Shown here: one piece after another, positions 7,164 through 40,704 of the stretch | Position numbering within the stretch: position 1 is the first letter of the stretch | Layout of the letters: each line of letters opens with the position of its first letter | Assembly (NCBI GenBank): GCA_965233585.1 | Contig: CBDDTI010000593.1 | Location: 1 to 52,459 of the forward strand | DNA length: 52,459 bases | Direction of reading: 5' to 3' | Source of the DNA: a bacterium | GTDB taxonomy: Bacteria; SAR324; NAC60-12 | The notes under the pieces: model-generated | Databases searched by the model: none | What the model was told of the DNA's origin: nothing | What the model saw: the letters and a program-made list of their open reading frames with translations, nothing else | Position numbers and translations under genes: made by a program

Positions 7164-9279
7164 TTTGGCCCATTCCAGTGCTTAATGGGCATACCTAGTG
7201 CATCCAGTCTTATAGTAGCATCTATTAATGGTCGTAATTCAGGAGAGATTCTTAACTCTTGGTAGATGGCACTGGGAACCGCAGTACTAAACAAGTTAGT
7301 GACATAAGAATTAAACCCATTTTTTACCGACCAAAATGATGAAAAAATTAATATGTTCACATAAATAGCGAGTTTCTTGAAACTATTCAAATATTGGCCA
7401 TTATCACAAGACCAGTCTGAAATCAGGCCCTTGTAATGCAGTCCAAGCAATTCTGACACTAAATAGTCGCGGCTTCACCGTTTGACCGCACTCGGAACTT
7501 ACGCGTGCTGCATTTGGCAAACTTGCCGCATGTTCAGCACCATCTCTTGCATTTCAACTGAAACATTTAAATGGCCATTAAATTCTGTAATCAATATGGG
7601 CCAAGCACAGAATTGGAACTTTCCAATTAAGCTGCGATTGCGTAGGGAAGCTTGTGCGTTACCCATGCAGTGATTAAAAAGGTTTCTGACTATTATATGC
7701 TGGTTCCGAGAGACTTTTTCAACTTTCTCCCCCACTTCCATTGGGGTGACAGTAGCGGCCTGAGCTAATGAACATTGGAACTTTTCAGTGCTCATAAGTG
7801 ACGCCAGTGAAATCTTCCCATGGCAAAAGGCAGGAAGTAAGAGTCAGCTGTGCTGCGGGAATTCTGTGGTTGCGACGCACCAGTTATATCTTCACGCGAT
7901 CGCGGCTTTTACCTCGACTGCACCATAGTTGCTTCATATGTCATTGTGACCATGTTCTTTGGTCACGCTGACACATTGGACTGTGAGGGTCAAAGCGAAA
8001 GAAAAACCAACTTTTTGGTTAACGACCATTAGGCACAAAGAAGATCTTAGGTCAGCTGTCATCTGTCACACATTGGAATTATGGTCTGAAATTGTCAGGA
8101 CCAATTACAATTGGTAAAGGATTATCAAAATTTGGTAAACCAAGAGTAACCAAAATTGGAATTGGTCACCAAATTCGTGACCCCAATTTTTGATCAAACC
8201 CAATTGCCTTATTGATTCCATTTGGTCCTTAAACAGATCCAGACAAGCCGCTATTTGGTCGCCAAATGACATTTTTTCAGGCTAATACATGTGCTACCAA
8301 AAATAAAAAACCAGAACTTAGTCTTGGGCCTAGTGCATCTTTTGCAAGCCCCTTATTACCCTACTGTCAAGAAAAAGTGTAAGCTTTCAGCCCAAGGAAC
8401 ATCGGTGCTACCTCCTGGTATGCAATATTGCTCATGCGATCTCAGTTCAGCACATTTGTACCACCCTACTCAGTAATTCTCAGGTTATGGACCTTGTGTA
8501 AAATTAGGCGATTTTAAGCTCCCCTGCGAATAATAGATAACTAAGCAATTTCAGTTAGCTTTAGAGTTGTCAGGCTCGTTGCCGAATGCGAATGCGAGGC
8601 AACATACTTTTTGAGCTCGTGGACCCAGACCTAACTGAAATTGTCTTGATTTTTTAGGTTAGGCTAGCTCACGCGTTAGCCTCGGTTCAGGTCAAGTTAG
8701 GTTCGCGTTAGTTTAGCGTTAGAGTAAGGGAATAATTTCCGGATAGATAACAGCTAAAACATTTTGGGTAAATAATGAGTACCCCATCCTAAGAAAAGTG
8801 AGGATCGCATTTACCAAAGTAGAATCACTGGTCCACGAGACCGCATACTTTTTAAGTAGCCGACCATGGAAATCTGTTGGATCATTAAGATTCAGTAAAG
8901 ATGCACCAGTGTAAGTCTCAGTCGATAAAATGATTTGATCAGCGTTCGAACCGGGGGTAATTGTATGTTCGCGCATGATGCTTGAGGACCTTTTGAACGT
9001 GGGACTTAAATAGGTGCATACAGTAATAAAAAAGTTTTAACGTGTTCGACAGTGGGGGAAATTGTTGTTCCCTGACCGCGTAGAGGACTTTAACGCAAAG
9101 GGGTTTAAAAAGGCGCTCAATCATAGTTTTTTACACCCCTGAAGCGGGGGATACTGTCATTCAACTAAAGATGTCAAAGCGGGGGAAATTTGTAGGGTAT
9201 TACATGATGAACCTTGTGGAAGCTACGATCGAAAAAGTCGTAGTATGATTCGTGCCTCTAATCACTTTGAATACTTGCT

Positions 9280-18060: not shown

Positions 18061-18409
18061 TTTCAAATTATGTGACTGGAGAGAGAGGGGACTCGATCTG
18101 GGCCCACCTTTTATAGGGACGCTTACTTTAGGTGTAACCTTCTAAGCAACATTGTTCAGCAAAGTCATAGCACAACAGGGAGGAAATGATCAAGCTTTCC
18201 AAGTTGGAGAGTTGGAATACTCCCAGATAGACTTAAAGCTGCACACTTTCATGTGTTTAGTGTTGCGAAACTTGCAATACTCAGAATTGGGGTCCAAGCT
18301 TTTTTCAAAGGTAGATGGTCTGGGATGGGGAAAGTTTGTTTTATTGTATATTTGTCACTCTTGTAGTATATAATCCCTTGCAGAGTCTAAAGCCCCTAGC
18401 TAATGGAGG

Positions 18410-19000
18410 AATATTTCCAGGGATATCCTCGAAATTTTATTTTAAATATCAGAAAGGATATCCATTGAGATTGTTCCTGAAAAATTGAGGATATTCCTAG
18501 GAATATTCCTAGGAATATCCGTAATAATTTTCTAAAGAATAATACTTTCAACTATGATTCTTTTGCTTTACAAAACAAAACGATGATGACAATGGATATT
18601 TCTAGCAGTATTCCTAGGAATATTCCTAGGAATATCTGTAATAGTTTTCCAAAGAATGATATTTTCAACTATGATTCTTTTGCTTCAGAAAACAAAATGA
18701 TGATAAAAGATATTCCCAGTAATATTCCTAGGAATATTAATAATAATTTTCCAAAGAATAATACTTTCAACTATGATTCCTTTGCTTTAGAAAACAAAAC
18801 GATGATACATATGGGGAAACATTCTTTAAACTCAAGAAGGATATCCATCAAACTTTTAGAATGTGTTCAGAAAATATTCCTGATTTTCAGTAAACCATTT
18901 TTTGAGATATATCCCTCAAAAAAATGGATATCTTTAGGAATATTCCTCTTTATTTAGTGCTTATGAAGTGAAATTATTACAAATGCAGAATGGATATCCC
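18410..19000. repeat. AT-rich tandem repeat (3 units of ~110-120 bp) with GGAATATTCC palindromes
   Basis: TTTTCCAAAGAATAATACTTTCAACTATGATTC-like unit x3; repeated GGAATATTCCTAGGAATAT. Confidence 0.7.
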
Positions 19001-19545
19001 TCAGGTTAGAGAGCACAATAAATGTATACCATATTTTTTTACAGCTTAAGACGAGGAAGCGGAGGATGCAATAACAGGGATTTTAGTGGATACACAGCTC
19101 TTCACTACGCAGCCCTCCACGGTCATTTGTAAGTTTGTTTAGGACATTTCCTATTTTTCCTTCTTATTTTCCCATTCCATTTTTTATATTTTCCATCAAA
19201 TTTTGGTAATTTTTAGCAAATTTTGGTAATTATCACCAATATTTGATCATTTTTACAAAAATTTGGTAATTTTTGCCAAAAGTTTGACTCTGAAAATGTT
19301 ATGCACCAAATGGAATTGCTTAGAACTCACCAGCCTTTACTTTTTCAAGATTTTGACCTTTTCATGCATCTGCCCAACCTTTCCTCACTCTATTCAAAGA
19401 CAGAATGAAAAATTTTATTTTTGTTGGTTTGTTTTGTTGTTGTTAAGCTTGGTAATCTTAGATAATACAAATCTTAGATGCACTCAGTGGGGCCATAGGC
19501 TACATTGATATGATTATCTAGTTCCTAGGGTGAGTATAGAATCTA

Positions 19546-20475
19546 CCGGGTGGGGTGAAAAAATCTTCACACTTTCAATATAGAACTTTATCAAGATGTA
19601 TTTGGGAAACCAGTAATGTTGTGGCAATAAAAATGTTTTAAAATAACTAAAACAATGTCTTGGCTACCCTAATCATTGATGTAGCCCCCTTAGCAGCAAT
19701 GATGGCCTCCAGGCAGCCACGGAAGGCCTTGCACCCAATGCAGATGTGGTCCTCAGACATGGTTTCCCTGTGTTGATTGACAGTGTCGTTTAGGGCATTG
19801 ATATTTTTGTGACATATAGTGCAGGCCTTGGACTCAACATACACCCAAAAAGTGAAGTCCAATGGGTTGGCATCTGGTAAGTAAGGGGGCCACATGTTCT
19901 TTGGCCAGAAAGGCTATGTTGTCCTCCAACCACTTCTGAGCCTTTTTGGGGCCTTTTCAGGTGCTCCATCCTGTTGAAACATCATGTTCTTGCCTGGCTA
20001 GTAATGGGAACAACGAACCTATTCATCTAAAGTTTGAATTTTTCACACTGTGCGAAAAATTAACAAAAAGTGCAAAATTTTCACACCTTTTGCGAATTTT
20101 TCACAACAAATTTCGCAAAAGGTGGGAAAAATTCGCAAAAGGTGTGAAAATTTCGCACTTTTTGTTAATTTTTCACACATGTGCGAAAAATTTAAACTTC
20201 AGATGAATAGGTTCAACTTCTCTTGATCCCCAACTGCTTTGCAATTTCTGTTGGCATTTAATAGTGCGCGGATTAAAATTGGTTGGTCAAATTCAGATGG
20301 CATTTTCTGGGGTTCTAGAGCACTTAGGAAGCTCCAATTTTCTTTGTATACTTCATTTTTGTTTATTTGTTTATTTATTTATTTATTTTATTTGACCAGA
20401 AAAATTTTACCACATTCATACAACCTTGAGCTATTTAGCAAAAACGAAGTGTAAAGATTTTTTCACCTCACACGG
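19546..20475 (-). mobile_element. Internally deleted Tc1/mariner-superfamily transposon (transposase pseudogene)
   Basis: Minus strand FQQDGAP and WPPYLPDANPLDF motifs; imperfect TIRs CCGGGTGGGGTGAAAAAATCTT / AAGATTTTTTCACCTCACACGG; TA at left; interrupted by MITE A. Confidence 0.8.
20015..20214. mobile_element. MITE family A copy 2 nested in the Tc1/mariner
   Basis: Same TIR as 2926-3098; flanked by AAC on both sides (possible 3-bp TSD). Confidence 0.75.
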
Positions 20476-21215
20476 CATATGGATATTCTCACCCTAGTTT
20501 ACAAGGGACATATTAATCAGTTTCTAGGGCGAGAATAGAATCTATGAGGATATTCTCACCCTAGTTTACACCCTAGTTTCCACCCTAGTTTCTTGGGTGA
20601 GAATAGAATAGAAAGTGTATAAAAATTAATTCTCACCCTACGTACCTCAGGGTGAGAATAGAACGAACCGCCTCCCTTAGAACCAATTGATTGCTAAAAA
20701 GCTCAAAAGCTAATAAAAATTCTAAGAAAAAAGGTAAAAGGCCGGACATTTTACTTCATGTGGCTACTAAATTACTTATTTAGTGTTTTTCAAATAGACA
20801 TATCTTTTTTCCCCCAGAAAGAATTTTTATAAGCTCTTTGGCTTCTTAGCAGCTTCTATGTCATGATCCACTTCTTAAAGTTGGAGATCTTAAAAGTTAA
20901 CATGCAGGATTTACCACAAGGGCTCAAACTCCTCTAAGACCCCTAATCAGAAAATCGATGTTTCACCTGAGGTGACATTGCTTCTTTTGTCTTCAACTTT
21001 TATCCAATAGCAACCTAATGTGTTTAAGTGAAATAAATTCCTTCATCTAAAATGTCCCTAAGAATATAAAGGGCTCACTTTTTGAAGGCTGCTAGTAATT
21101 CCGCCAAAACTACATGTAGCTTGTATTATACGGAAAAGAGTGCCATCCTACTACGTAATGCTTCTGAAGTGCTACTCGAATTTGAAACCATTAACCCTCT
21201 AATTGTAACTTACAG

Positions 21216-21371
21216 AGATATTGTAGAGCTGTTACTTAGTTATGAAGCGTCGTGCAACAGCGCCGATGATAAAGGATCAGTCCACTCCATCTAGCTGCAT
21301 GGGCAGGCCATACGCAAATAGTGGAAACTCTACTTACCCAAGGACCTTCCATTGCAAACGTCAATCTCACG
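21216..21371 (+). CDS. ANKS1: Internal exon of host ankyrin-repeat gene (ANKS1/caskin-like); apparent 1-bp deletion
   Basis: TTACAG acceptor, GTAAGT donor; reads DIVELLLSYEASCNSADDKGS[frameshift]SPLHLAAWAGHTQIVETLLTQGPSIANVNLT; ankyrin consensus and GPSxxNVNL typical of ANKS1 proteins. Confidence 0.75.
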
Positions 21372-21497
21372 GTAAGTTAGTTAGACTGCTTTGTAGTTTT
21401 GCAAAAAATGGCTTAATAGCACCAAATCTTCAGCTACTTGAGTTGAATTCAATCAATATAACATTCACCTTATCTGTTTGTATTTTATCAGGTGATA

Positions 21498-22210
21498 CTG
21501 CCATCCAAACCAAATACCAGAGTTCATAATGCAGTGGTTCTTAACCTTTTTCGACGGTGTGCCGCAGTGCTCATTTACAAAAATCATACGTGCCGACCAA
21601 TTACGTATATTTCGTTGCGTATTTAGTGAGATACTTGAAACTGCATTTGGCCGTCCAGAAGAGCCGAGTGCCGCACTCGGACCTTTCGCGTGCCGCATTT
21701 GGCACGCGTGCCGCACGTTAAGAACCACTGTCATAATGCCTTCTAATCATTTGCCACCAATACCAAGTACCACCCTAACTAAGTGCCACCCAAGACATTT
21801 GCCATCCAAGATATTTTCCTATTAAGACATTTGCTGCCCAAGACATTGGCCACCCAAGACAATGGCCACCAGAGACATCTTCCACCCAAGACTTTTGCCA
21901 TTCAGGGCAAAAGCCAGGTGGCAAATGTCACAAGCAATCAATGTCTTGGATGGCAAAAGTCTTGGGTGGCAGATGTCTCCGATGGCCATTGTCTTGGGTG
22001 GCAAACGTCTTGAGCAGCAAATATCTTGAGCAGCAAATGTCTTGAGCAGCAAATGTCTTGAGCAGCAAATGTCTTGAGCAGCAAATGTATTGATAGGCAA
22101 ATATCTTGGATACCAAATGTCTTGCATGTCAAATGTCTTGGGTGGTACTTGGTATTGGTGTCAAATGATTTACAGGCATTATGAATTCTGGCATTTGGTT
22201 TGGATGGCAG
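21498..22210. mobile_element. Foldback element with internal short tandem repeats
   Basis: CTGCCATCCAAACCAAAT... vs ...ATTTGGTTTGGATGGCAG; internal GCCACCCAAGACATTT and GAGCAGCAAATGTCTT repeats. Confidence 0.7.
21532..21730. mobile_element. hAT-type MITE nested in the foldback element
   Basis: TIR CAGTGGTTCTTAAC...GTTAAGAACCACTG; perfect 8-bp TSD TCATAATG (21524-21531, 21731-21738). Confidence 0.9.
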
Positions 22211-23437
22211 AAGTCTTTGGTGGCAAATGTAGTGGGGGCAAAATTACTGGGGGCAAATAGGATAGGTGGCAGGTGTCTGGAGGCGTGTCAGGTGGCAACA
22301 TTGCAGTGACATCTGTCGTAGAATCTAAAGAAACAATAGAAATTCAACAAACCCGAATTATATTTCCTCACGGATGATGAGGTCACTTCCAGTGCTCTAG
22401 GCAGAAAAATATCAATGGTTGGAAGGGGCCATTTTTGTAATGTTCACCAAATAAAGCTGAAAAATGAATTGTATCATATAAAGACTGGCAATGCTACGCG
22501 CTGCTGCCTGTTAAGGCTCCAAAAATAGACCACGCCAGAGTTAAATATTTCGAACTATCTTTGTGGTGTCTGGCCAGGTGGCAACCTTATTGGGGAGAGT
22601 GGCGACTCCTGTAATACCAGCTTCTGCAACACAACCTGCTGACCAACGGAGAAGGTAAGAAACATGGAATTGCAAAGGAATAGTTCAAGGTAGTAGAGGC
22701 TGGAAACAAAGCTGGGCAAAGCCTTTTTGAATTGGCATGGTCTAAGTACATGCATTTCTAATCTGTAATGTGTTTTCTGTGACATGAACATTGGGAAGGT
22801 GTATACTTAAAGGAATGAATTTTGAGGACTGAATTTTGAGCAAACACCTACGCGACAAAAATGATAATGGTTATGAAAAATGGCAATGAATTGGCAGTGA
22901 AATTATAAAAATTTTTAGACCACATGAAAAGGGTCTAATCATCAAACTATTTACATATATTTTTACCCAAAATTCAATGATCAAAAGTCATTCATCAATA
23001 GGTGTTTCATCAATATACATGCTGCCAACACAAAAACATTACAAGTTAAAAATAACTGGCTGTAGATGACAGCACCTAATAATGGGAGGGGATCAGTTTT
23101 GAAATTTTGGATGGAGAGGGACATTCTTCCCTGGCATGCAGTGAGGCCATTTACTAAATAGTGACAGAAGTACAAAAATCTATAATTTTCAGGTGCCTTA
23201 AAAAATTGCTTTGTTTTTTGCAATGTTGTAGTATTTTCAGTAAAACATCACCACTTTTTGGCATGCAAATTGGACCAGAATGTCAACACGACAAGAAAAG
23301 TATTCGGCCAAAGGCCGAAAAAAGTTTTTGAGTTTTTCAGTTGAAGTATCCTGGTTGTGCTTTTTTGAGAGCCCTGTGGTTTAAAAATCTTACGTTTTTA
23401 AGGCAGTGTATTTTTTGTTAAGTGAGCATGTGTTTTT

Positions 23438-23661
23438 GTATACAAAGCGACCTCTACGGATCTAAAAATAGGCGCCATCGGTCTACGCGTAGACCGTTTG
23501 AGACTGAATCGGCCTTAAATGATCTAAAAAGACCTCAAAACAGTCTGCTTGCAGGCTGCACGTAGACTGAATGGCACCTTCCTGCAGCCTGCAAGCAGTC
23601 CGTTTGAGACTGAATCGGCCTGAAATGATCTAAAAAGACCTCAATACAGCCTTCCCGCAGC
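23438..23661 (+). repeat. Left terminal inverted repeat (224 bp)
   Basis: GTATACAAAGCGACCTCTACGG...CCTTCCCGCAGC; reverse complement of 46897-47120 with no mismatch seen. Confidence 0.95.
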
Positions 23662-24339
23662 CTGCAAACAGCCTTCATGTAGCCTTCTCGCAACGATTAA
23701 AATTTTTTATTCGATGAGTGTCTTATGATACATGTCCAAATCAAAGGTACCCAAGGGAATATAAAGCAACTGTAATGCACCAATGTATTTTTTCTCAACG
23801 AGTTGAGGTAATGTTGAATTGCCAACGGCTTTATTTTTTTGAATCTTAATCGTGTTTTAAATCTATCGGTGATCGGTTCTCCACATATCATCGAATTTGC
23901 CTACTCTCCTCCGGTTCTACCTTCGATTCATGGGATAATTTTACCAAGAACCGGAGCTATAGCTGGAGGAAATTTGGGCTTTTGTTGCTTCGATCGTCTA
24001 AAGAAGAATCGCATAACGCCGAGTTTGCCTGCTCTCCCCCTTCGACTTCTCAAAATTAGGATTCGTCATCAAATTTTGTGTCGTCGCCGGAGGAGATTTG
24101 GTAAACATTTCTTCCTTCGAGTTTTTGTGTAAAAAAATCAAACGAGTCGAACCAAGTGAATGAAGAGCGAATTATTAACACCGTAATTTTCACTCCATTG
24201 ATTTCTTTAATCCGTAACCTATGGTTTGAAGGAGTCAATGGTGTAGAAAATTGGTTCTGTCAACTCATCGTGAAGAAATAAACATCGGTTTATTTTAGTC
24301 TGTTTTTAAATTCGTTTATTTCAATGAAAATTGTATTTT

Positions 24340-25354
24340 TTATACAATTCTGTTTAACATGGGAAATTTTTTTAATTTAATTTTTGTCTTCATTTTCATT
24401 AGTTTATCATCCATTTTATCAAGTGCATTAATGTTTACGTAAAAAGGATTTTTAGCTAGTCTATTCAATCTGATTATTGGGTTCCTAAGTTTAAATTTTC
24501 TATCTCCTGCTTTTAACGCCAATTTCGATTTATTCAGTTTAACTGTGGGGGTCCTAAGCAAAAGGCTTGTATCTTCCGGTTTTAACCCCAATTTTGATTT
24601 ATTCACTTTAATTGTGGGGGTCCTAAGTTGAAGGTATGTATCTTCCGGTTTTAACCCCAATTTTGATTTATTCAGTTTAACTGTGGGGGTCCTAAGCAAA
24701 AGGCTTGTATCTTCCGGTTTTAACGCCAATTTTGATTTATTCAGTTTAACTGTGGGGGTCCTAAGCAAAAGGCTTGTATCTTCCGGTTTTAACCCCAATT
24801 TTGATTTATTCACTTTAATTGTGGGGGTCCTAAGTTGAAGGTATGTATCTTCCGGTTTTAACCCCAATTTTAATTTATTCAGTTTCACTGTGGGGGTCCT
24901 AAGCAAAAGGCTTGTATCTTCCGGTTTTAACCCCAATTTTGATTTACTCAGTTTAACTGTGGGGGTCCTAAGCAAAAGACTTGTATCTTCCGGTTTTAAC
25001 CCCAATTTTGATTTACTCAGTTTAATTGTGGGGGTCTTAAGCTTAAGGCTTCTATCTTCCGGTTTTAACCCCAATTTTAATTTATTCAGTTTAACTGTGG
25101 GGGTCCTAAGCAAAAGGCTTGTATCTTCCGGTTTTAACGCCAATTTTGATTTATTCAGTTTAACTATGGGGGTTCTAAGCTGAAGTTTTCCATCTTCCGG
25201 TTTTAACGCCAATTTTGATTTATTCAGTTTAATTGTGGGGAGTTTAAATTTTTGCATTAATCTTAATGGTTTTAATTTTGTCGTAATCATTTTTCTTTTT
25301 TTCTTTAGAATTATTTCATCATCATCATCTTCCTCGTTCCAGCGCCTTTTCCCT
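24340..25354 (-). CDS. Lys/Leu-rich 23-aa tandem-repeat region; probable exon 2 of the 26498 gene
   Basis: 11 copies of TPTVKLNKSKLGLKPEDTSLLLR (69-bp unit); ORF start at 25371 is TTG; joins upstream ORF in frame via GTAAG...AAG intron 25355-25419. Confidence 0.75.
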
Positions 25355-25419
25355 CTTAATGTGGGAGGCAAATAAAATGGCAGTTCTCTTAACTCAGTCG
25401 TCGGATTTAGTCTCCTTAC

Positions 25420-26498
25420 TTTCTCTCCTCATCTTCTTCTTCATCGTCTTCTCTATTTTTCCTTTTTCCTGTCTTAATTCTTTCAATCTGCCGTGTTCTT
25501 TGAATTCTTTCCCATTTATCTGGCGGTATTGGTCTAAATGATTTTTTTCTTTTTCTACGATTTGTTTTTAGAGTGGGTTGTTTTTTCCCCTCTCTAATTT
25601 GTTGATCAATTTCTTGTTGACCAAGTTTTCCCAGCTTTACTTGTGATTCCATTTCATCTAAAGCCGGCCTTTTTTCCGCCGCTCGATGTAATTCCCTCAT
25701 ATCCTCTCTATGACTTTGCAAGAAGGACGGAGTAAGTAAAACTTTTTTCTTCGGCTTTATTTGTTGTTGTTTTTGGCTTAGTTTGTCCAAATTCTCTCTG
25801 ACCATTCTTTGTTCCATAGCATTTAGCCGGTAGTTGTGTTTCTGATGCATGTGTCTGGCGAAAAATCCCGTCTTTTTAAAGTCGGCGCTGTTTTTGCAAA
25901 GAGGACATTTTAACGAAGAACTATGTAATATATCATTGATAGCCCAATTGATGAGAAATTTAGCTCGGTCTGTTTCTGTTTGAGACGAAGTCGCTTCCCT
26001 TGTTTCTTGCGGCAGTGACTGGGGTAAATCGGCGACGGGGAAAATTGCATTTTGCTCAGCAACGGGCGGTGCGGAAATAGAATTTGACCTTTGCCTCGTA
26101 ACACTGTGCTCGGCAACGGGCGGTGCGGAAATGGAATTTGTCCTTTGCCTCGTAAGGATCGGAGGAGGTGCATTGGCAATTGTTTCAATTTGTTCGTCAA
26201 ACGTCTGTTGAGGAAAATCTTCTGTTTGCATCTCATCATCGTTAACTGTAGCATACGTGTCATTGATTTCCCTATCCGGTGATGGTTGTTCATTTACCTC
26301 TCTCGGTTGAGATTTAAATGATTTTAATTGATGAAATCGTAGGGCTTTTTCTAAATAATTGGTCTCGGCGTTTAAGTCTTGTACTCTTTTTAACTGATCC
26401 GGGTCTTCTATGTTTTTTACAATGTTAAAATAAATTCCTTTGGGAATTAAAAACATTTCCGAAACGCCCTCCATGTTTTTTGATTTTATTTTCTTCAT
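25420..26498 (-). CDS. C2H2-zinc-finger-containing viral protein; probable exon 1 (spliced product 697 aa)
   Basis: 360-aa ORF with CPLC-x13-H-x4-H; stop lies inside the GTAAG donor; ATG overlaps the stop of the 117-aa gene (ATGA). Confidence 0.75.
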
Positions 26499-26848
26499 CT
26501 TGTCAAAAGTTGAGTAATTAGGGGAATTACGGCGCTGGCTATGGCTGATAGCACTCCGATTATTCCCCCCCTTTGCAACAGTTTTCTTCTCTTCCCGATA
26601 TCAGATTGTGAACGGGGGTGACTGGCCAGTTTTTTAAAATCTGACAAATGACTTTTTACCTTTTTCCTCAATCTCCCCCGCACCCCCCGCCTCAATTCAA
26701 GTTCGCCGTTCAATACGTAATGGATTATTTGACACAAAATATATATTCCCTTATCATCTAAATGTCTTATGAAATTGGCGCAATCGTGCCCTTTTAAGTG
26801 TTTTATCGCCGTAAAAAAGGAAACGGCTTTTTCTAATGATCTAGTCAT
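26495..26848 (-). CDS. Small Polinton virion protein with QxGG site and C-terminal amphipathic/hydrophobic helix
   Basis: 117 aa, basic, ends LLQRGG-IIGVLSAIASAVIPLITQLL; adjacent to the ATPase. Confidence 0.75.
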   Translation of the reverse strand: MTRSLEKAVSFFTAIKHLKGHDCANFIRHLDDKGIYILCQIIHYVLNGELELRRGVRGRLRKKVKSHLSDFKKLASHPRSQSDIGKRRKLLQRGGIIGVLSAIASAVIPLITQLLTR

Positions 26849-26882: not shown

Positions 26883-27569
26883 TTACATAGATACGTGATA
26901 GGTTTTCATCGGATATTCGTGAGGGAAAATGTGACTTCTTAATCGCACCAAATTGTTTTGTCGCTGATGAAAATCAAGCAAGAGGTATCCGTAAGGACGA
27001 TTGTTGGTAGCCAAACGATAGGCTTCATTTAATAAAAAATTTCTCCCGGGAAACACTTGTTTCGACAGTTGAGATATGGAGCTTTGATCTCTGGGGTTAT
27101 TGAACAAAACCATATATTGGGTGTTGATGCTCAGTGTTCGAAGTTCATTTTTGGCATTGAATAAGTTTTGACACAGGAAAATGGTGAAACAATGATAGTG
27201 GTGAGTAAGGACCGTAAAAAAATGCTTTAAAACCGATCCTACTTCGTCTAAATAATCATCGAACACTACCAGTTTCGGAGCTTTTTTCGGCAACATTTCT
27301 AATATGTCTTTTATTTCCTCCACGGAGGAAGGTATCGATGCAAATTTAAAAAAGCGAGTTTCGTTTTGATCTTGATTCATCTGTTGGTCCATGTCCTCGT
27401 AAGCCTTCTGCCATTCTTTGTAAAATAGTATCATGTACTTTGGTACTTCGGCAAACATGATTTGGCGATTTTCCACTAGTCTCTTTAACCACGATGTTTT
27501 CCCGCTGGAAGTAGGTCCTACCGCCAACATGTTGGATGGCAGGAAAAATCGCACATCGAATCCGCCCAT
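26883..27569 (-). CDS. Genome-packaging ATPase (FtsK/A32-like)
   Basis: Walker A GPTSSGKT, Walker B LVVFDD, downstream HH, QNLF, RTLSIN and RPYGYLLLD motifs typical of Polinton ATPases. Confidence 0.93.
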   Translation of the reverse strand: MGGFDVRFFLPSNMLAVGPTSSGKTSWLKRLVENRQIMFAEVPKYMILFYKEWQKAYEDMDQQMNQDQNETRFFKFASIPSSVEEIKDILEMLPKKAPKLVVFDDYLDEVGSVLKHFFTVLTHHYHCFTIFLCQNLFNAKNELRTLSINTQYMVLFNNPRDQSSISQLSKQVFPGRNFLLNEAYRLATNNRPYGYLLLDFHQRQNNLVRLRSHIFPHEYPMKTYHVSM

Positions 27570-27623: not shown

Positions 27624-30600
27624 TTACGGCTTACATAGATGATGTCTTTTGTATCTCTTAATATACACACTGCCCAGGGCCAATGTACATTTGCCGCAAG
27701 GTAATATATATCTTTTTGTGTCCATAGAAGAGAGGGCAATTTTCCGCCGAAAAGTTGTGCTGATTCGATGGTTCTTTGATGCCAAATGGGTAAACGTTTT
27801 GTAGGTCAATTTGCTATCGATCAAACATTTTTCATAATCTTCGAAAGAAAGTTGATTTTGGATGCTCGTTCTTTTCAATCCTTTGCAAACTTTTTTTTGA
27901 GCTTCTTTTTTACTATTTAAATTTTTTATTTTCATGGCGTAACATTTCGGTCTTAATCCGATAAAATCGGTAATGGCCGACTGACCTTTCAGTTCGTCTT
28001 TAAAATAAAACAAATGATTAGCTCTGCTGTTGTTGTACAGTACGTGATTCTTATTGTACTTGGAAAAGTCGAACATGTGCTCCATTTCTTTCAGTTTATC
28101 GATCAAATTGCTGCACTTGACTTGAAACAAGAAACTATCCGTATCCGAGAAGCATAATTTTAAATTTTTTGCGCCAAATTGTTGCCGAAATTTATCGTAA
28201 GATCGAAACATGAATAATTTGGATAATTCTAAAATCGCAAATCCGGTAGGGGTGGGTTTATTCAGGGTGATGAAATCGGGCTTTTTCATCACCGCTACCA
28301 AATTTTCGTTGATGATCTTAAAGTTGGAAACGTGCTGTCCTAGGCACGCTTTTCGTAGACTTTTTTCATTATCACACAAAATAATGCTGGTGTAATTTCG
28401 TGCGTTTTCTGAAAAAATATCCATGATATCAATTGATCATTTTTTGTTTTAAAAAAAAGGAGGAAAACATAATTACCTATGAATTTCCCGAAAGTTGAGT
28501 TGGCAAAAAGTTTGAACAGCCGAAGTTCAAATTCTGTTTCTGCTTCCGATCTTAGTTTGGTGATTTTTGTAATGAAATTTTTCAGGAAATCTTTTTGGAT
28601 AAATTTTACCGCTCTCCTTATTTTTACCAATTTTAACCCTTTTTGAAGATAATACTGCAAATTGTCCAATAAAACCACATACTTCTTCCGCGGATAAAAT
28701 GTGGCTAAAAGTTTTTTGGAATTGTACTTCTTTCTTCGGTAATCTCGGTAGTTTTGCATTTTTAGAACCTGTCTGTTGAACGGAGATAAGTTTTTAAAAT
28801 CAATTTGTCCGTTGTAGGGAGCTAGTGGAAATTGATCATCTCGCTGATAAAAAAATGGGAGAAAAAAATTTAATTATATTTTTTTCTTTGATAAAACTGA
28901 GAATATCCTTTTTCTCTTTTATCATCATTACCTTGTGATATTTTTTGGGATAGATCATATCAACTTCAAAGGCGTAGCCTGTTTCTCCCTGCGTTGGAAT
29001 GTTCAAAATGTCTTCGGCCGTCCATGATTGGAGTTGTTTCTCCGACACCCACTCGAAATTTCCCACGGGTAGTTTAAACGTTTCACAACTTCCATATAAA
29101 TTATTAGCTAGAAATATGATGGAGGGGGGAAAAAAATCAGATCGAATTTTTCTTTCTGGCTATATTTTTTTACTTACCGTCAACATAAAGCAGATGATTC
29201 CCCGGTGTTTTAGGATCTTCGTTTCCCTTCGCTCGCCTGGTCGATATAAAGCTTTGCCCTCCTCGTATGCCTTTATTGAAAAACTGTTCCATGTCCGGAT
29301 CATGGAGCAAATCTAATGAACCAAATGGTTTTTCGGTTTCGTCCTTATTTTCAGTCTTTTCCTTTTCATAGTACATTTTCAGCATAATGTCGAAAGATAA
29401 ACCGGGTATGCCTATATAGAAAAAAATGTTTTTAAAATAAATGAACCAAATAAATTTTTCCATTTTTTTCAAAAATATCTAAACGTACCTAAGTAATAAA
29501 TCGGGTCCAATTTAAAATGATGTAATACCATTTCCCGATATTTGACGAAAACTTCTGCCAGCAAAATGACATCCAGTCCGCAGTATAACTTCATGTAATC
29601 CTCCATCGTTCGACATTGGAAGAATTTAAAGACTTTTTTCCCGTGTTGATAGTCTTCAACGGAAATCCCCGCGTCGTTTAACGTCGAGTGAAACTCTGCT
29701 CGAGATGGGAACGTGCGACTATTTTTAATATGCTCGAACGAGGAAAAAAATTCGTAAGGGTAAACGCCTTTTCGCTTTAATAATTTTACAGCGGGGGGTT
29801 TTTTACGGTGCTTCAGCTTTTGTAAGACCTCAAATTGGCGAAGAAGGGGGAAATTAAAATTGTCATCTTTACACAGGTCCGATACCAGAGCATCCAGACT
29901 CGAAGGGATGTGTTCCAAAGAATCTTTTATTTGAAATCGGCCGATGGAGAGCGTTCTAAATTTTTCCTGATTCCTGGCCATAACTTTGGCTTTAATTTTC
30001 AGTTTTTCCAGCAGCAAATTTATGTCGTATCTGAAATGATTGAGGGGAAACGAGTCATTGTCACAACATGTTGTGGACATGAAAATATTCTTACCCCTGA
30101 GCGTTATGAAAATACAGCGGCGTCAAGAAGGGTCCCTGTCTCTGAAGATTGCAAATAGCGTGTGCAGCTTCGACGATTTTCCCCGAAACATGATCGTGAT
30201 CTACCACTTTTCTATACCGGAAAGATCGGCTTTCAAATGGTTTTTCGCAAATGTGACAAGTTTCGGCCCGGTGGTAAGCGTCCCACTCTAGGGGGGAGGC
30301 TACTATTTGGCTTACTTTTCTAAATCTTTGTTTTCTTTCTTCTACCAATCGTTCGTAATCCGTTAACTTGTTCAGAAAACGCTCAACCGCGTCCTCCCCG
30401 CTGTAGGTTTCTTGGAAAAAAACGTCATTTTCCGAATCCACGAAACATATGGAATAAGCGCAAGGCTTATGCCGGCATTGTTCTACACTGGCTGACACAT
30501 CACATTGGCACGAAATTGGGTTCTTATTACATTTTTTACACTTCACCTTTTGGCCCTGATCGCCTTTTTCCATGAAACATTCGAAATCTGCGAATCCTAT

Positions 30601-35851: not shown

Positions 35852-36412
35852 TTATTCCGGCACCGCTTTTAGCTTATCACACAATGATTTTATTAAATAT
35901 TGTACAATTTTTTCGTTATGGTTTAAATTTTGACGAGAGAAAAAGTTTGAAAAATATCGTGGATCGCAACTTGAATAAATGGTAACCATCATACAAAAGG
36001 CGGCCGTGTACCACCCGCAAAACAAGGAATTAAAATTCTGGACGGGATAGGTGAGCACGCGCCTTATCGTAACATTCTTCCGCCTTTTCTTCCACCTTTG
36101 CAATAAGTTCATTAAATGATGATTATGAGCGGGCGGAGGTAGAGCGTAACTGTCAAAATACCAAAGATTTTTCCCCTTGATGTAAATAGCGATAAAATGC
36201 CCGCCCGACCGATGAGAGGGGGATAGATTGACGATAAAACACTTCCCCCCATGATGAACGTTGAATAATTGCGGGGGGACGAGGTCTACGGAGAAAACCC
36301 CCGCAAAATGACGATGGTCTAATTGACGTAAGAATTTTTCCAAGACATCGTTTCTTAACCCCTCGTTGGTCACGACCGACTCGTTCCCCATGTTATGAAT
36401 CGGCGACCTCAT
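35852..36412 (-). CDS. Adenain-like cysteine maturation protease
   Basis: GVFSVD, IVNL, GGHF (His), YFDSY (Asp), Q..NSLFCG (Cys); start may be the second ATG at 36391. Confidence 0.93.
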   Translation of the reverse strand: MRSPIHNMGNESVVTNEGLRNDVLEKFLRQLDHRHFAGVFSVDLVPPQLFNVHHGGKCFIVNLSPSHRSGGHFIAIYIKGKNLWYFDSYALPPPAHNHHLMNLLQRWKKRRKNVTIRRVLTYPVQNFNSLFCGWYTAAFCMMVTIYSSCDPRYFSNFFSRQNLNHNEKIVQYLIKSLCDKLKAVPE

Positions 36413-37742
36413 CGGTTCTGATCACCTGACCTCCGTTATCAATTTTCAACCCGGAATTGAAAATGGAATAGGCCAGGAGATAAATAGGATGGGTTTTGGC
36501 TGTTTTGAAACCCAATTCGACGTCCAACTTCCCCTTTTCGTCCGGGTGGATATGATAACTATTGCAACGGTCGGGGGTGAAATCCGCCGTCAGAAAACAC
36601 CGACCCTTCTTAAAAGCCTCCATGCTTACGCTGCAAGTGTAGTTGGAAATGCCGTAGCCGATGCTGTCGTACATGTGTCGATACAAATCCAGGTAATTGT
36701 CGTTGTCAAAATCGGGCTGAAAAGCCTTCGGAAAGACGCATTGCCCATTTTTGATCACGTTAAAGTGATTTAAATCGAAATGTTGAAAGTTGAAGGGGTT
36801 TCTCGAGCTGCTCTGCGACAGGGCCTGGTTGTGAATCATGCACATAATGAGTTGTTTGGGGAGAATTTGAGAAGCCACGTTGGTGACCGTGTAAGTCGTC
36901 ACATTGGCCGGAATGACAAAAACCTTGAATTGCGTCATTTTGTAGGGTATGTAACACGGCTCCCGGCTCAATTTCAGCGTGAAAGCATCTCGCTGTTGAG
37001 CGGAAGGGAGAACTTTTCTCATTTTCAGCTTCAAATCCTTCAACTGGACGACATAGGTTTTCCCGACCTCGTTGTGCAGAATACCGAATTGGGGATGGGC
37101 TCTCACCAACTTTATCTTGATATCCACATTCGGTGGAAGATATTTATCGGTGTACATGATATCAGCCCCCAAGCGCGAGCAAAAATACACCTTTTTATGA
37201 TCCGTCAATAAATCTCGGCGAGCGGTCAAATTTGTATTACCAGTGGGATCGTTTTTTTCGATTTCCTCCGGTTCTTCGACGAAATAACCTTCGCTTTTTA
37301 ATTGGCATTTTTTGCTCTCCAAATCGTAAGACAACTCCGTCTGGATAAAATTTCTAAACGGATAGGCGTTGGCGGTGCTTTGATCGCAAACTTGCACGCC
37401 GTTCAGGTAAATTTCCACTTGGGAGAATAAGTTATAGGCAAAATTATTAGCCAGAAAAACTTTATGGTCGTCCTCCACATCTCCTGCGGCACCATCTTGC
37501 TTGACAATAAAATGTCCGATCAGTCTGGTTTGGTCCAAAATGAACGAACATTCCGCGTCGCGAGGGATCAGGAATTCAACGGGTCCCGCGTTGGTCACGC
37601 TGGTCACGCTATCGTAAATAACATCCGATCCCTTTTCTAAACTCACATCAACCCCCAGGGGCGAATGCAGATCAAGAGCCTGTTCGATAAGATCGTCTTG
37701 CTCGAAACCTAATCCCGCGATACCGCCCCTATTGTCGGACAT
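36393..37742 (-). CDS. Major capsid protein 1 (Polinton double-jelly-roll type)
   Basis: 449 aa; LFSQVEIYLNG, YPF, KYLPPNVDIKIKL, NPFNFQHFDL, DFTPD motifs typical of Polinton MCPs. Confidence 0.88.
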   Translation of the reverse strand: MSDNRGGIAGLGFEQDDLIEQALDLHSPLGVDVSLEKGSDVIYDSVTSVTNAGPVEFLIPRDAECSFILDQTRLIGHFIVKQDGAAGDVEDDHKVFLANNFAYNLFSQVEIYLNGVQVCDQSTANAYPFRNFIQTELSYDLESKKCQLKSEGYFVEEPEEIEKNDPTGNTNLTARRDLLTDHKKVYFCSRLGADIMYTDKYLPPNVDIKIKLVRAHPQFGILHNEVGKTYVVQLKDLKLKMRKVLPSAQQRDAFTLKLSREPCYIPYKMTQFKVFVIPANVTTYTVTNVASQILPKQLIMCMIHNQALSQSSSRNPFNFQHFDLNHFNVIKNGQCVFPKAFQPDFDNDNYLDLYRHMYDSIGYGISNYTCSVSMEAFKKGRCFLTADFTPDRCNSYHIHPDEKGKLDVELGFKTAKTHPIYLLAYSIFNSGLKIDNGGQVIRTDEVADS

Positions 37743-37861: not shown

Positions 37862-39298
37862 TCAATAATATCTCTTTTGTACCTGACGGTCTTTACCGAT
37901 CAAAAGAAGGGCGTTGTACACGGCGTAAGAAAGCAAGGTATAATCCGATTGAGCCAACTTGCTAAAAGTCAAATCCAATGCAAGAGAACCGGATTCGGAG
38001 TTATGGTTGTGAAAAGAATGGCATTTGTCGGGCGTTAAATCGAAAACCATAAAAGTGTATCCTTTTTTGTAATTGTCAAGGGTGACTCGATTTCTGGTGT
38101 TGACATTACTTTGAAAATGGTCGTACATGTGCACGTAATCCCCATTGTCAAAATTGCAACGCATGATGCGCGGTAGCAGAGGTTTACCGTCCTTTTTCAG
38201 CATGACGGAAGAAAGGTTGGCATCTGAATAATAAAAGGGGGAATCGGTACATACATTCCTGCCTAACAGCCTGCTCCGGACCAGGGCAAAAACGATCTGC
38301 ACAGGCATTTTTCTGCCCGCGTTAATGAAATTGGCGCTAAAACTGAGAGAGCCGAAAGGGATGTTATAAAACTTTAGCTGCGTGTCCTTGTAAGGTATAA
38401 CACAGGGCGAATTTTTTTCGTTAAGTGAAACGTTGATCCTGTTGCGCACGCGTACGGTGGTTAGCGCCTTTCGCATCCGTAACTTTACATCTTGTAAACA
38501 AATGTTGTAACGGTCATAAGACGTGGATTTGCTTATTAGCCCAAACATGGGATTAAACCTCCGCAATTTTATATTGATTTCCACATTAGGGGGCAGATAC
38601 TTGTCGGAGTAGAATATATCGGCGGGAATGACCGTGCTAAAGTAGACCTTTTTTCCATTCATGATACGGTTGTGATTTTCTACTAATCGAGGGTCAGTCA
38701 AAGCCGTATCCAAGGTACGTTCGGAGACAGTCCCCGTAGCCGTATCGGTGGGTTCATTTCCATCCTCGTCCATCTCAACCTCCTCAGCAACGTCTTTAAA
38801 TACCAACTTAAACTCATTTTTCCTTTCGGCGGTGTAGTATCCTTCCGTTTTAAAAAGGTAATTGGAGACGGAAAAGGGGTAGGATAAAGTTACATCGATA
38901 TTGTGTTTGAACGGGTAGGAGACGGAAGCGCTGAGATCGCACACTTGAGTGCCGTTGAGATAAACCTCTATTTGTGAAAAGAGACAGGCCCCATAGTGAT
39001 TGGCTAGAGTAACCTCGTCTTTCTCATCTAAAAATTTCCCCTTGAGATCTTTGACCACAAAGTAGCCCTCCAATCTGCTTTGATTCAGCAAGAAATGACA
39101 CTCCGGATCGGGGGGGATATGAAATTCAACATCCCCCGTCTCCTCGATCGGTGAAACGCTGCTATAAATAACAGTACGACCGGATATTAAATCCACTTCT
39201 TGTTCCAAAGGCTTATGCAAGTCCAGACTCTCTCCTTTCAGCTCATTAAACTCCACATTCAGCCCTCCGATACCGCCGCGAGAGGTGGCGGAAGTCAT
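37862..39298 (-). CDS. Major capsid protein 2 (divergent paralogue)
   Basis: 478 aa; shares RGGI.GL, LDLH.PL, LFSQ.E.YLNG.QVCD.S, DKYLPPNV, D.TPD.C.S.H with MCP1; extra acidic insertion. Confidence 0.85.
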   Translation of the reverse strand: MTSATSRGGIGGLNVEFNELKGESLDLHKPLEQEVDLISGRTVIYSSVSPIEETGDVEFHIPPDPECHFLLNQSRLEGYFVVKDLKGKFLDEKDEVTLANHYGACLFSQIEVYLNGTQVCDLSASVSYPFKHNIDVTLSYPFSVSNYLFKTEGYYTAERKNEFKLVFKDVAEEVEMDEDGNEPTDTATGTVSERTLDTALTDPRLVENHNRIMNGKKVYFSTVIPADIFYSDKYLPPNVEINIKLRRFNPMFGLISKSTSYDRYNICLQDVKLRMRKALTTVRVRNRINVSLNEKNSPCVIPYKDTQLKFYNIPFGSLSFSANFINAGRKMPVQIVFALVRSRLLGRNVCTDSPFYYSDANLSSVMLKKDGKPLLPRIMRCNFDNGDYVHMYDHFQSNVNTRNRVTLDNYKKGYTFMVFDLTPDKCHSFHNHNSESGSLALDLTFSKLAQSDYTLLSYAVYNALLLIGKDRQVQKRYY

Positions 39299-39914
39299 GA
39301 TGATAGAAGCGGCGGTTAACCGAGATGACTACACGATAAGTAATATTAAAATCAGCTGCGTCATTGCTATAAAAACTGCGAATCTTCTACTCTTAAATAG
39401 CGATGATAAGAATGTGAAATATTTTGGAAATTTTATCGTCGTTAGAAGAAACAACTTTGTTTACAGCATTTTCAGAAAAAGAAAAAAATCCATCAGAGAG
39501 ACGAATAAGGAAAGGAACGGCGGCGACGCGGTCTTGTATCATATCAACATCACCAAAATTCCGTCGCCTGACCAAATTGCGTCTTCCATCGACAATTTGA
39601 AAAACATCATCCAAAACGAGTATTTTGTGATGACCAAGATAATCAACAACGTAACGTGCACCTACGATACCAAATTATCGTCCATCCCGCTGTTAGATTT
39701 GATAGAGGAATTGAAGGAGAAAATACCGTCGGTGAAGCGGGTGAGATTTAATCCGGAAAGATTTCCGGGAATGTTTATTTCATTTCCGGACAACACCTTG
39801 TTAATTTTTTCTTCCGGCAAAATGGTTGTAATCGGCGGTAGAAGCGAGCGGGTCAATCTTCATAGCATCGGTGAAATGGTCAAATTTTTAAAAATGATCC
39901 AAGACCGGAAATAA
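39297..39914 (+). CDS. TATA-binding-protein-like factor
   Basis: RFNPERFPGMFI...TLLIFSSGKMVVIGGRS matches TBP repeat consensus (YEPELFPGLIY...LLIFVSGKVVLTGAK); ISNI and INNV match the NxV/I strand opening each repeat; first ATG 39297. Confidence 0.87.
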   Translation: MMIEAAVNRDDYTISNIKISCVIAIKTANLLLLNSDDKNVKYFGNFIVVRRNNFVYSIFRKRKKSIRETNKERNGGDAVLYHINITKIPSPDQIASSIDNLKNIIQNEYFVMTKIINNVTCTYDTKLSSIPLLDLIEELKEKIPSVKRVRFNPERFPGMFISFPDNTLLIFSSGKMVVIGGRSERVNLHSIGEMVKFLKMIQDRK

Positions 39915-39981: not shown

Positions 39982-40704
39982 ATGTATTTTCAAAACTATT
40001 GCCATCATTGTCCACATCCAAGGCCGGTGAACGATGTGAGTAACGGCTTTCACGTTTGTCAAGATTGCGGAAAAGTATTGGGACCAGTGTACGCGGAATC
40101 GGCAATCGCATGTCATACGCCCCGATTAGAAAGTCCCAATCAAAACTCATTCGAAAAAGACCTGTTGGAGCGAATATGTGACAAATGCTACATCAACGAT
40201 GCGGAATTAATTCGTGTCATAAACCATCAATGGTCGGACCTTAAACGCCAGAAGAAAAAAAACCTTCACAACGTGGAAGCTTTGATGCTTGTCGCCGTTT
40301 TTTTAGCCTTGGTAAAAAGTAAAGTGCCGAGACCTGTGCAACACTTGTGCCAACTGACCAGCATCGAGCCCGAAAAAGTGTGGCCCCTTCTAAACCCGCA
40401 AGAATTTTATTTCCAACCCAGTCTGATGTGCGAATACTTTCTTAAAGGGCTGAACCTGTCTTTCAAAGATGTTGAATCGATAAGAAAAAGAGTCAAATTT
40501 TACGAAAGAAAGATCGTGTTTTCGCCGCAAACAATTATAGCCGCCTGCGCTTACACCTTTCTAAGAGAAAATAAAATGACTTATACTTTATCAGGGAGAG
40601 AAACCCCAATTACTCGCCTGACCTTCGTGGGATTGGCCAAAGAATTAGGTATCAGTCCTATGGCGCTGAATAGATGCGTGAAAAGATTAACCGCCGTAGA
40701 GTAA
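39982..40704 (+). CDS. TFIIB-like factor
   Basis: N-terminal Zn ribbon CPH...GFHVCQDCGKVL; cyclin-repeat motifs VAVFLALVKSKVPR and SPQTIIAACAY; C-terminal LAKELGISPMALNRCVKRL helix-turn-helix. Confidence 0.85.
   Translation: MYFQNYCHHCPHPRPVNDVSNGFHVCQDCGKVLGPVYAESAIACHTPRLESPNQNSFEKDLLERICDKCYINDAELIRVINHQWSDLKRQKKKNLHNVEALMLVAVFLALVKSKVPRPVQHLCQLTSIEPEKVWPLLNPQEFYFQPSLMCEYFLKGLNLSFKDVESIRKRVKFYERKIVFSPQTIIAACAYTFLRENKMTYTLSGRETPITRLTFVGLAKELGISPMALNRCVKRLTAVE

Follow-up and report, generated by a model that had tools for sequence, protein, structure and literature searches.

Background

Mavericks/Polintons are widespread virus-like elements, and to our knowledge nearly all of their non-structural genes are without an explanation. 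Here we analyze one such gene in a 52,459-nt stretch of DNA (contig CBDDTI010000593.1 of GenBank assembly GCA_965233585.1), which was studied at its full length and is hereafter called the window. The gene is the last one before the left end of a Maverick/Polinton, and its protein ends in a basic tail built from 11 regular copies and one degenerate copy of a short unit. We tentatively read this tail as a multivalent docking array, probably for HP1, a possibility that we favor while rating it somewhat short of an even chance.

Among mobile-element tethers to heterochromatin, the Ty5 integrase carries a targeting motif for Sir4. Chromodomain integrases of chromoviruses are heterochromatin tethers as well (cited in PMC8502044). 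The element in the window resembles these systems in having an integrase with a chromodomain and in carrying a short peptide or domain that is a candidate contact with silent chromatin, and differs from them in that this candidate is a separate, multivalent protein.

The closest description of the unit itself comes from the HP1a Access Codes (PMC12526061), an extended HP1a-binding signature whose core has a hydrophobic residue at -2, V/I at 0, an aliphatic residue at +2 and an almost unvarying basic residue at +4. In its flanks, three to six basic residues lie within -4 to +4, acidic residues are barred at -6, -3, -1, +1 and +5 and aromatic ones at -4 and +6, and hydrophobic residues are favored at -7, -5, +5 and +7 (PMC12526061). 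The Maverick unit shares P at -2, V/I at 0, L at +2, a basic residue at +4 and three basic residues in -4 to +4, has hydrophobic residues at -7, -5, +5 and +7 and no acid at the barred positions, and likewise lies in a charged and, by a charge-hydropathy estimate, probably disordered region. It differs in that the examples in the paper are described as single motifs whereas the Maverick tail holds 11-12 tandem copies, in that a mobile element, not the host, encodes its protein, and in that several relatives carry E at +1, which the signature disfavors.

With the adintovirus "Oncoid" proteins and other hub binders of the adenovirus E1A type (PMC8502044), the protein shares a zinc-binding CxxC together with short linear motifs, and, with the Oncoid, encoding by an adenovirus- or Maverick-like element near the gene for the family B DNA polymerase (PolB). 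The motif class differs, however, and the gene lies downstream of the packaging ATPase, not upstream of PolB; the LxCxE motif by which PMC8502044 defines the Oncoid is absent from 14 of 14 family members, which excludes this identity. PxDLS, PPxY and PTAP are also absent from the family.

Two further comparisons concern structure. The adenovirus fiber (PMC3457955) has an N-terminal tail with FNPVYPY, a repeated shaft and a knob, and the Maverick protein likewise has a terminal NPxY-type motif by a basic stretch, adjoining a repeat region of variable unit number; its motif lies at the C-terminal end, however, so that the polarity is reversed, its repeat region is strongly basic and irregularly spaced in relatives, it has a zinc finger, and the motif match spans only 4-5 residues. 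With the leucine-rich repeat (LRR) protein of PDB 4u08 (Leptospira LIC11098) the array has in common a 23-residue period, a number of core positions occupied by Leu, and Pro in the LP position; it differs in having no Pfam LRR match, K or T at three core positions, S or L at the Asn position, and an ancestral module of ~17 aa at variable spacing.

Results

The window encodes a tandem array of a basic P-x-[VI]-x-L unit

Tandem Repeats Finder places an array at 24511-25240 (period 69 bp, 10.6 copies, 90% matches, 0% indels, score 1187), inside a minus-strand open reading frame (ORF) of 343 aa at 24340-25371. The features of this ORF, running from its stop codon upstream to the array and beyond, are as follows:

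24340-24417, minus strand: lysine-rich C-terminal end with FPML (24355-24366; family [FY]P[KM]L end motif) and the stop codon (24340-24342), from sequence motifs
24418-24486, minus strand: degenerate twelfth unit R-N-P-I-I-R-L-N-R-L, leading into the family NPFY motif (24439-24450), from ORF slicing
24487-25245, minus strand: 11 regular in-frame 69-bp (23-aa) units, from Tandem Repeats Finder, a unit table and a codon table
25291-25371, minus strand: stretch resembling a bipartite nuclear localization signal (NLS; LPPTLRGKRR, an acidic run, KKKRK), directly upstream of the array, by pattern only

The regular unit type is R-T-P-T-[VI]-K-L-N-K-S-K-L-[GA]-L-K-P-E-D-T-S-L-L-L, and the twelfth unit is the ancestral terminal unit, common to other lineages. 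The first-pass annotation, made from the letters of the window, had placed 11 in-frame 69-bp units at 24468-25243, with seven exact PxVxL motifs and ten LKPE strings; Tandem Repeats Finder and ORF slicing bear out the units, the unit table confirms both counts, and the coordinates were correct to within ~20 bases. Exact PxVxL is present in 7/11 regular units as six PTVKL and one PIVKL, the other four reading PTIKL (two) or PTIKV (two) and the twelfth unit PIIRL, while LKPE is present in 10/11, the eleventh and last regular unit having LKAG (LKAGD).

This number of motifs is far beyond chance, with 12 observed P-x-[VI]-x-[LIVM] cores compared with a mean of 0.57 and a maximum of 4 across 1000 shuffles of the 343-aa ORF. 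The 12 matches are nonetheless copies of one young unit and not 12 independent events: the units differ at few codons, a three-unit higher-order duplication joins units 5-7 with units 8-10, and the ratio of nonsynonymous to synonymous differences among units (pN/pS = 1.23) is uninformative for an array this young.

We rejected a plus-strand ORF at 24890-25183 as a by-product of the repeat, and regard the minus frame as real: in sister copies and database relatives alike, it carries on from an N-terminal half that is conserved. Within 24385-25429, some contigs from public sequencing runs skip 552 bases (8 units) or ~1040 bases; such joins across the array reflect either copies with fewer units or assembly collapse, which short-read contigs cannot distinguish.

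The array is the tail of one continuous gene that is frameshifted in the window

Upstream of the array, the gene continues through two further features:

25416-26498, minus strand: N-terminal half of the gene (360-aa ORF), with an N-domain, a low-complexity middle, a finger and a basic region, from the ORF map and the family alignment
25419-25451, minus strand: acidic GAT/GAA/GAG tract with a single-base frameshift in the window copy, from alignment with the sister copy and contig depth

The frameshift splits the gene into the ORFs 25416-26498 and 24340-25371. A sister copy in the same bin (contig C608) is 98% identical and has a single reading frame, its contig ending exactly at the start of the array, and the database proteins P0002 (506 aa) and P0040 (692 aa) represent the continuous one-ORF form. 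In four public runs, all from a single study whose independence of the window is uncertain, the majority of contig depth carries the other tract length at 25424 (6.1/6.1, 29.9/37.2, 23.3/44.8 and 22.1/40.4). The window copy is a frameshifted version of a ~692-aa gene, and the full-length protein cannot be produced from it.

An alternative had been offered by the first-pass annotation, which described the repeats as fused by splicing to a C2H2 finger. The finger was rightly seen, as a C2H2-like finger is present in the N-terminal half. The splicing did not hold up: removal of a 65-nt GTAAGG...TTAAG stretch (25372-25436) would restore the frame in the window copy, but we reject this stretch as an intron because the majority form is in frame without splicing, because its removal would break that form, and because it is conserved as protein in relatives of 44-61% identity (P0005, P0020, P0021, P0066).

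Put together, the intact protein of ~692 aa almost certainly consists of an N-domain, a low-complexity stretch, the finger, a basic region, the repeat tail and an NPxY..[FY]PKL end. The N-domain spans ~50 aa and has the family form MFLVPxRIY...NYIENAI (in the window MFLIP...NYLEKAL at 26310-26456). The window finger reads C-x2-C-x14-H-x4-H (25836-25907), and the pattern C-x2(4)-C-x12-14-H-x4-H recurs in 15/15 members checked, as one finger or, in some members, two; across 19 sequences, M1, C186, H204 and H209 are invariant. Matches of the finger to curated Pfam models lie only below cut-off. All eight PDB matches of the family profile are C2H2 fingers, although weak ones (E 0.15-3.2), and 9 of the 10 best named Protein Atlas matches of the N-terminal half are C2H2 proteins, at a score of ~0.9. 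The basic region carries bipartite-NLS-like stretches by pattern only, of which the one at 25291-25371 is kept in relatives and serves as the amplified unit in another lineage. After the variable tail comes the family end motif NPxY..[FY]PKL.

The gene defines a conserved and fast-evolving Maverick family

Searching 1.84 billion representative proteins with P0002 (HMMER) returned 33 clusters at E≤1e-3, of which 18 reach 1e-10 and 9 reach 1e-30; two more members, P0066 and P0070, both of full length, came from a profile search, and tblastn with seven members as queries located 43 family loci in the bin that contains the window. Members of 10 clusters checked bore no informative name, only "hypothetical protein" on a 34-aa fragment. 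Full-text literature searches turned up no published description of the family or of a PxVxL-bearing Maverick protein; genome, viral and metagenome contig collections and phage records yielded no related DNA loci, and a whole-protein Protein Atlas search gave nothing above 0.82.

In 8/8 contigs listed, the gene order is C2H2 gene, 403-aa ORF, PolB, ATPase, 117-aa ORF and repeat gene. Identity between lineages is 27-31% for the N-terminal half compared with 64-71% for the ATPase and 60-71% for the integrase, and the gene is therefore among the fastest-evolving conserved genes of the element. It is, in short, a conserved, fast-evolving accessory gene of Maverick/Polinton elements from an unnamed family, and the analysis thereby defines one Maverick accessory family with a fixed place, a recognizable architecture and a tail that repeatedly amplifies short modules.

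A tree of the ATPase separates clade A (the window, C98 and "ENEPLSKLRR" types) from clade B (the 471-aa and 266-aa types). The same deep division appears in a tree built from the N-domain and finger together, which does not resolve the six main-clade lineages.

Different lineages amplified different tail units around a shared module

In-frame tandem arrays occur in this gene in several lineages:

Window, tail: 69 bp x10.6, in frame
C246, tail: 258 bp x4.7, in frame
C435, tail: 78 bp x2.3 and 120 bp x2, in frame
C58, tail: 93 bp x2.9, in frame
C224, middle region: 111 bp x2.6, in frame

The amplified unit sequences are unrelated between lineages, which evidently amplified different tail units independently. 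What recurs is a basic P-x-[VI]-x-L module, found in 5/6 main-clade lineages; the sixth carries a close variant whose Pro is shifted outward by one position, and in clade B the module is absent. Counts of P-x-[VI]-x-[LIVM] cores and the spacing between cores are as follows:

P0040: 11 cores, spacing 23 aa (as in the window)
P0070: 11 cores, spacing 23-24 aa
P0066: 11 cores, spacing 16-46 aa
P0045: 9 cores, spacing 19-79 aa
P0037: 6-7 cores, spacing 45-80 aa
P0018: 5-6 cores, spacing 42-85 aa
P0013: 1 core

Shuffled versions of these relatives have core means of 0.8-1.3 (~0.8-0.9 for P0040, P0070 and P0066). Despite their 11 cores each, the latter three differ in unit architecture, with a 23-aa unit in P0040, a 24-aa unit in P0070 and a three-motif super-unit in P0066, and yet the modules of P0040 and P0066 align one to one (44% identity, E=3e-146, BLASTP). 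As this alignment shows, the ancestral module is ~17 aa long, an acidic pair followed by K-L-h-x-x-x-P-x-[VI]-x-L-x-[KR]-h, and the 23-aa unit of the window is a young in-frame amplification of it. Most relatives have one or a few copies of the module ahead of the NPxY end.

Recent slippage or unequal crossover in a tolerant, low-complexity tail of a decaying copy could by itself produce an array without any function of its own, and much about the window copy looks this way: its units are 90% identical with the pN/pS and higher-order duplication given above, the copy is frameshifted, and unrelated in-frame arrays appear in the same gene of other lineages (258 bp x4.7, 120 bp x2, 93 bp x2.9 and 111 bp x2.6). 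We nonetheless consider a functionless array improbable, given that it lies in frame without indels, that three diverged lineages have full-length, intact copies with 11 cores, and that the module is conserved at 26-44% overall protein identity.

The linkers between cores range from 1 to 70 residues and are polar, and a short conserved module set in linkers of free length is the pattern of a linear-motif array and not of one rigid repeat fold. This bears directly on a different explanation, namely that the units fold as a structural repeat (a beta-solenoid, an LRR-like rod or a fiber shaft), with the NPxY..[FY]PKL end as an anchor to the particle and with motifs that are structural and partly buried. 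A solenoid is conceivable for the regular 23-24-aa arrays, where each 23-aa unit holds three h-x-h dyads (V5-L7, L12-L14, L21-L23) between P, G and polar turns; the module spacing of 16-85 aa and linkers of 1-70 residues in relatives are hard to fit to one solenoid. The array matches the 23-residue LRRs of 4u08 at E=4.9e-5 (phmmer, with high bias), a match that falls to E=8.2 with two units and vanishes with the family profile, and neither LRR nor any other Pfam repeat family matches at E≤10. Pfam matches to TFIID-18kDa, UBA_ARI1 and DUF7077 on the repeat all lie below cut-off and were set aside as repeat noise.

Comparison with fibers divides in the same way. There is a weak PHROG tail-fiber match (E=1.1e-3), unit number and type vary between lineages as they do in fiber shafts, the gene comes after the packaging ATPase, and the family end motif resembles the fiber-tail FNPVYPY, a penton-base binder that likewise follows a basic stretch (PMC3457955). 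A net charge of +45 over 235 aa, however, together with a zinc finger and NLS-like stretches, would be odd for a fiber, and no capsid or penton gene was identified by sequence with which to compare it. NPFY itself is repeated 3-4 times in two lineages, which is unexpected of a single anchor and fits a linear motif better. We hold the structural-repeat explanation, whose dyads and biased LRR match also count against docking by exposed motifs, since a solenoid would bury V and L, to be unlikely though a serious contender.

The module agrees with an extended HP1a-binding signature

Returning to the docking array that we favor, we compared the units with the HP1a signature described above, which is that of Drosophila HP1a and may not be that of the host. 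All 12 of 12 window units show every hard feature of the signature. Whole-ORF shuffles pass on average 0.19 times (maximum 2 in 1000 shuffles), a tiled shuffled unit passes in 0.29% of 20000 trials compared with 2.7% for the bare core, and the reversed window ORF has 0 matches. The bin has 5737 stop-to-stop ORFs of 150 aa or more, of which 5593 lack any match, 140 have one and 2 have two, the highest counts being 5 in a TPR-repeat protein and 12 in the repeat ORF.

The relatives provide a broader sample. We aligned 31 different 15-mers, drawn from 8 lineages, by P, V/I and the aliphatic residue only; their free positions are basic at +4 in 25/31 and at -3 in 16/31, and hydrophobic at +5 in 23/31, at +7 in 22/31 and at -7 in 23/31, with no acid at -1, and these preferences agree with the HP1a signature. 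The PxVxL motif that the first-pass annotation had read as HP1-binding thus survived a harder test, both in the window units and in the module kept by diverged relatives. The tail, with its net charge of +45 over 235 aa, falls on the disordered side of a charge-hydropathy plot, a crude measure.

A number of observations weigh against docking to HP1. In the same 31 15-mers, E occurs at +1 in 5/31 and an acid at -3 in 4/31, and strict passes are uneven in five relatives, with 9/11 cores in P0070, 6/11 in P0066, 1/9 in P0045 (often with E at +1), 2/6 in P0018 and 6/7 in a further relative; reversed P0037 still scores 4 matches. The short core marks over half of a proteome (PMC12526061), ours was a test of a single motif class made after the fact, and the pN/pS of 1.23 within the array does not indicate that purifying selection acts between units. 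An integrase chromodomain occurs in 38/41 integrase matches and in all lineages, so it does not track the motif, and we rejected a link between the two. Finally, the 266-aa, 471-aa and "ENEPLSKLRR" types are abundant and multi-copy in the same bin and lack the module; the module is therefore not needed for propagation, and, as these sister lineages amplify other units, tandem amplification may be a general property of the tail.

Searches for a chromoshadow sequence came back empty for the bin and for 88 genomes of the phylum, and a search with the integrase chromodomain returned 11 integrase fragments only.

The composition of the tail would also fit another role, in which a basic tail compacts the DNA of the element for packaging or coats it in the nucleus, the finger binds DNA, and the motifs are incidental. 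K+R make up 27% of the repeats and 30% of the basic region (isoelectric point 10-11), in every lineage the gene has the packaging ATPase and a small ORF with a hydrophobic tail as neighbors, and its fast evolution and changes of length (27-31% identity in the N-terminal half compared with 64-71% in the ATPase) resemble those of condensing proteins. Basic residues are not all there is to the tail, however: the lineages retain its Pro, central V/I and Leu positions, every module again has an acidic pair, and the motif disappears when sequence of identical composition is shuffled or reversed. Adenain sites of the (M/L/I)xGG type mark adenovirus core precursors, and such sites occur in only 2/14 family members, once each, with no adenain-like protease detected in the element. 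Adintovirus virion proteins with basic pX-like C-terminal domains offer a precedent (PMC8502044), and on balance a condensing or core protein seems to us an unlikely identity.

The SUMO consensus is confined to the sub-lineage of the window

The units had also been described as carrying the SUMO acceptor consensus. This stood for the string, since psi-K-x-E is present as LKPE in 10/11 window units, a sequence scored as a SUMO consensus site in PMC3485284 and in a table of PMC5880895, and failed for conservation, which is confined to the sub-lineage of the window. P0040 has 9 psi-K-x-E sites, P0070 has 0 (with LTPED/LRPED in the same place), P0066 has 1 elsewhere (its string homologous to LKPE being LKAGD) and 11 other family members tabulated have 0-3, while a shuffled unit shows psi-K-x-[ED] 12% of the time. 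Because the acceptor lysine is not kept in relatives, we infer that the SUMO consensus is probably a recent by-product of the amplified unit, outside the conserved function.

A possible mechanism

In the docking-array reading, the tail would be largely unfolded, as beads on a string, with each module docking by beta-strand addition onto a host hub protein, for which the best candidate would be the chromoshadow-domain dimer of an HP1-family protein. A single molecule with ~11-12 modules could thus bind HP1 multivalently in the nucleus. Such a ligand, in concert with the zinc finger and the integrase chromodomain, might couple the element or its genome to H3K9-methyl/HP1 chromatin, or perturb such chromatin; whether as a tether, a targeting aid or an anti-silencing sponge, the direction is not distinguishable. 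The first-pass annotation had likewise conjectured a multivalent decoy or tether for HP1 and SUMO that influences how heterochromatin silences the provirus, and had named a basic DNA-condensing core protein and a beta-repeat fiber as alternatives.

A bolder and more doubtful version is that a Maverick clade carries its own multivalent HP1 ligand, with ~11 modules reached independently in three lineages by different repeat architectures. One molecule could then cross-link many HP1 dimers, and cross-linked HP1 might seed, enter or dissolve heterochromatin condensates around the DNA of the element, acting with the chromodomain integrase and the TBP homologue described below. If true, this would be the first DNA transposon or virus to manipulate heterochromatin via motif multivalency. 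Should the module dock HP1, the element would offer a multivalent ligand, natural and tunable, with which to study the building and breaching of heterochromatin condensates, as well as a concrete mechanism by which a DNA element might choose or escape silent chromatin. Even with another partner, independent amplifications to similar copy numbers would make the question testable with peptides.

The gene lies in a Maverick/Polinton element

The window is one whole contig (C593) of a bin (G000; 747 contigs, 12.0 Mb) filed as a bacterial genome, with a completeness of 92.5% and a contamination of 2.1%. Outside 24.3-45.7 kb, ORFs of at least 110 aa are sparse on it, and its right flank holds a gypsy-like reverse transcriptase/RNase H/integrase element at 49.2-51.3 kb; the contig itself looks eukaryotic. 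Features of the dense gene block and its ends, beyond those given for the repeat gene, are:

23438-23661: left terminal inverted repeat, 224 nt, 100% complementary to 46897-47120
24289-24320, minus strand: two AATAAA polyadenylation-type signals, 20 and 46 nt past the stop codon of the repeat gene, by pattern only
26495-26848, minus strand: 117-aa ORF with a basic middle and a hydrophobic C-terminal end, between the ATPase and the repeat gene, by synteny
26883-27569, minus strand: A32-like packaging ATPase (Pfam ATPase_2 E=6.5e-6, Pox_A32 E=1e-3)
46897-47120: right terminal inverted repeat, 224 nt, pairing with 23438-23661

Because PolB, an rve integrase, an A32-like ATPase and terminal inverted repeats occur together, we assign this block, 23.7 kb long, to Maverick/Polinton elements on its sequence features, and the first-pass annotation, which had taken the protein for a viral one of an integrated element, is borne out to the extent that gene content and terminal inverted repeats mark the element as virus-like. 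The outer edges of the inverted repeats are sharp, and no target-site duplication was seen at the element ends. The integrase matches Pfam rve at E=2.7e-11 and its chromodomain matches Chromo at E=2e-5, just under cut-off. The protein-primed family B polymerase was recognized in pieces, by DNA_pol_B_2 on one piece (E=0.0043) and an NSxxGKF motif; its gene (27624-30122, minus strand) is split into at least 5 frame pieces. A canonical 68-nt intron (GTAAT..TTTCAG, 28476 to 28409) joins the NSxxGKF region in frame, and genes of the element thus carry short spliceosomal introns.

The 117-aa ORF is present in every lineage (55-72% identity), its stop overlapping the start of the repeat gene, and has no family match. 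The element also encodes a C2H2 protein and a TBP homologue, the latter (39297-39914, plus strand) matching Pfam TBP at E=1.9e-11 and TBPs in the PDB down to E=2e-13; a full-text literature search turned up no mention of a Maverick TBP gene. Next to the TBP homologue comes a weak TFIIB-like ORF (39982-40704, plus strand), with a zinc-ribbon match under cut-off (E=6e-4) and no PDB match. All Maverick lineages of the bin retain the TBP and TFIIB-like genes.

Two paralogous ORFs of 449 and 478 aa (36393-37742 and 37862-39298, both minus strand; 37% identity) are both kept in clade A, while clade B has one. Neither matches Pfam, PHROGs or the PDB, whether searched as a single sequence or as a 9-sequence profile, and by size and place they are candidate capsid genes. 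In the search for double jelly-roll capsid and penton genes, no remaining ORF of the element had a Pfam, PHROG or PDB sequence match. The adenain-like protease searches covered Peptidase_C5 and C48, and neither was detected in this element. In the bin as a whole, Peptidase_C48 has no match and the sole Peptidase_C5 match (E=2.2e-4, over cut-off) lies at C389:14929-15237 in a 491-aa open frame, which may mark a different kind of Maverick.

Genes of Maverick type occur on 67/747 contigs holding 1.83/12.0 Mb, and fall into at least 5 lineages. By these genes, eukaryotic DNA has evidently been binned with a bacterium, and a bin filed as bacterial holds at least 1.8 Mb of contigs with eukaryotic mobile-element genes.

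In clade-B elements (C476:18144-18947, and likewise on C288, C212, C579 and C705), ~2.3 kb of extra sequence separates polymerase pieces and contains a GC-rich tandem repeat, one frame of which would read acidic DDHAPPVLV-type units; these also score as P-x-V-x-[LV] cores, but without basic flanks. On C112, two clade-B element copies lie head to tail with a period of ~18.05 kb, the gene order at 31-8447 being repeated at 18084-26500. In the window itself, a long imperfect palindrome lies 1.3 kb beyond the element's left end, at 21784-22145, and is made up of inverted arrays of a 16-bp unit (TGCCACCCAAGACATT and its complement).

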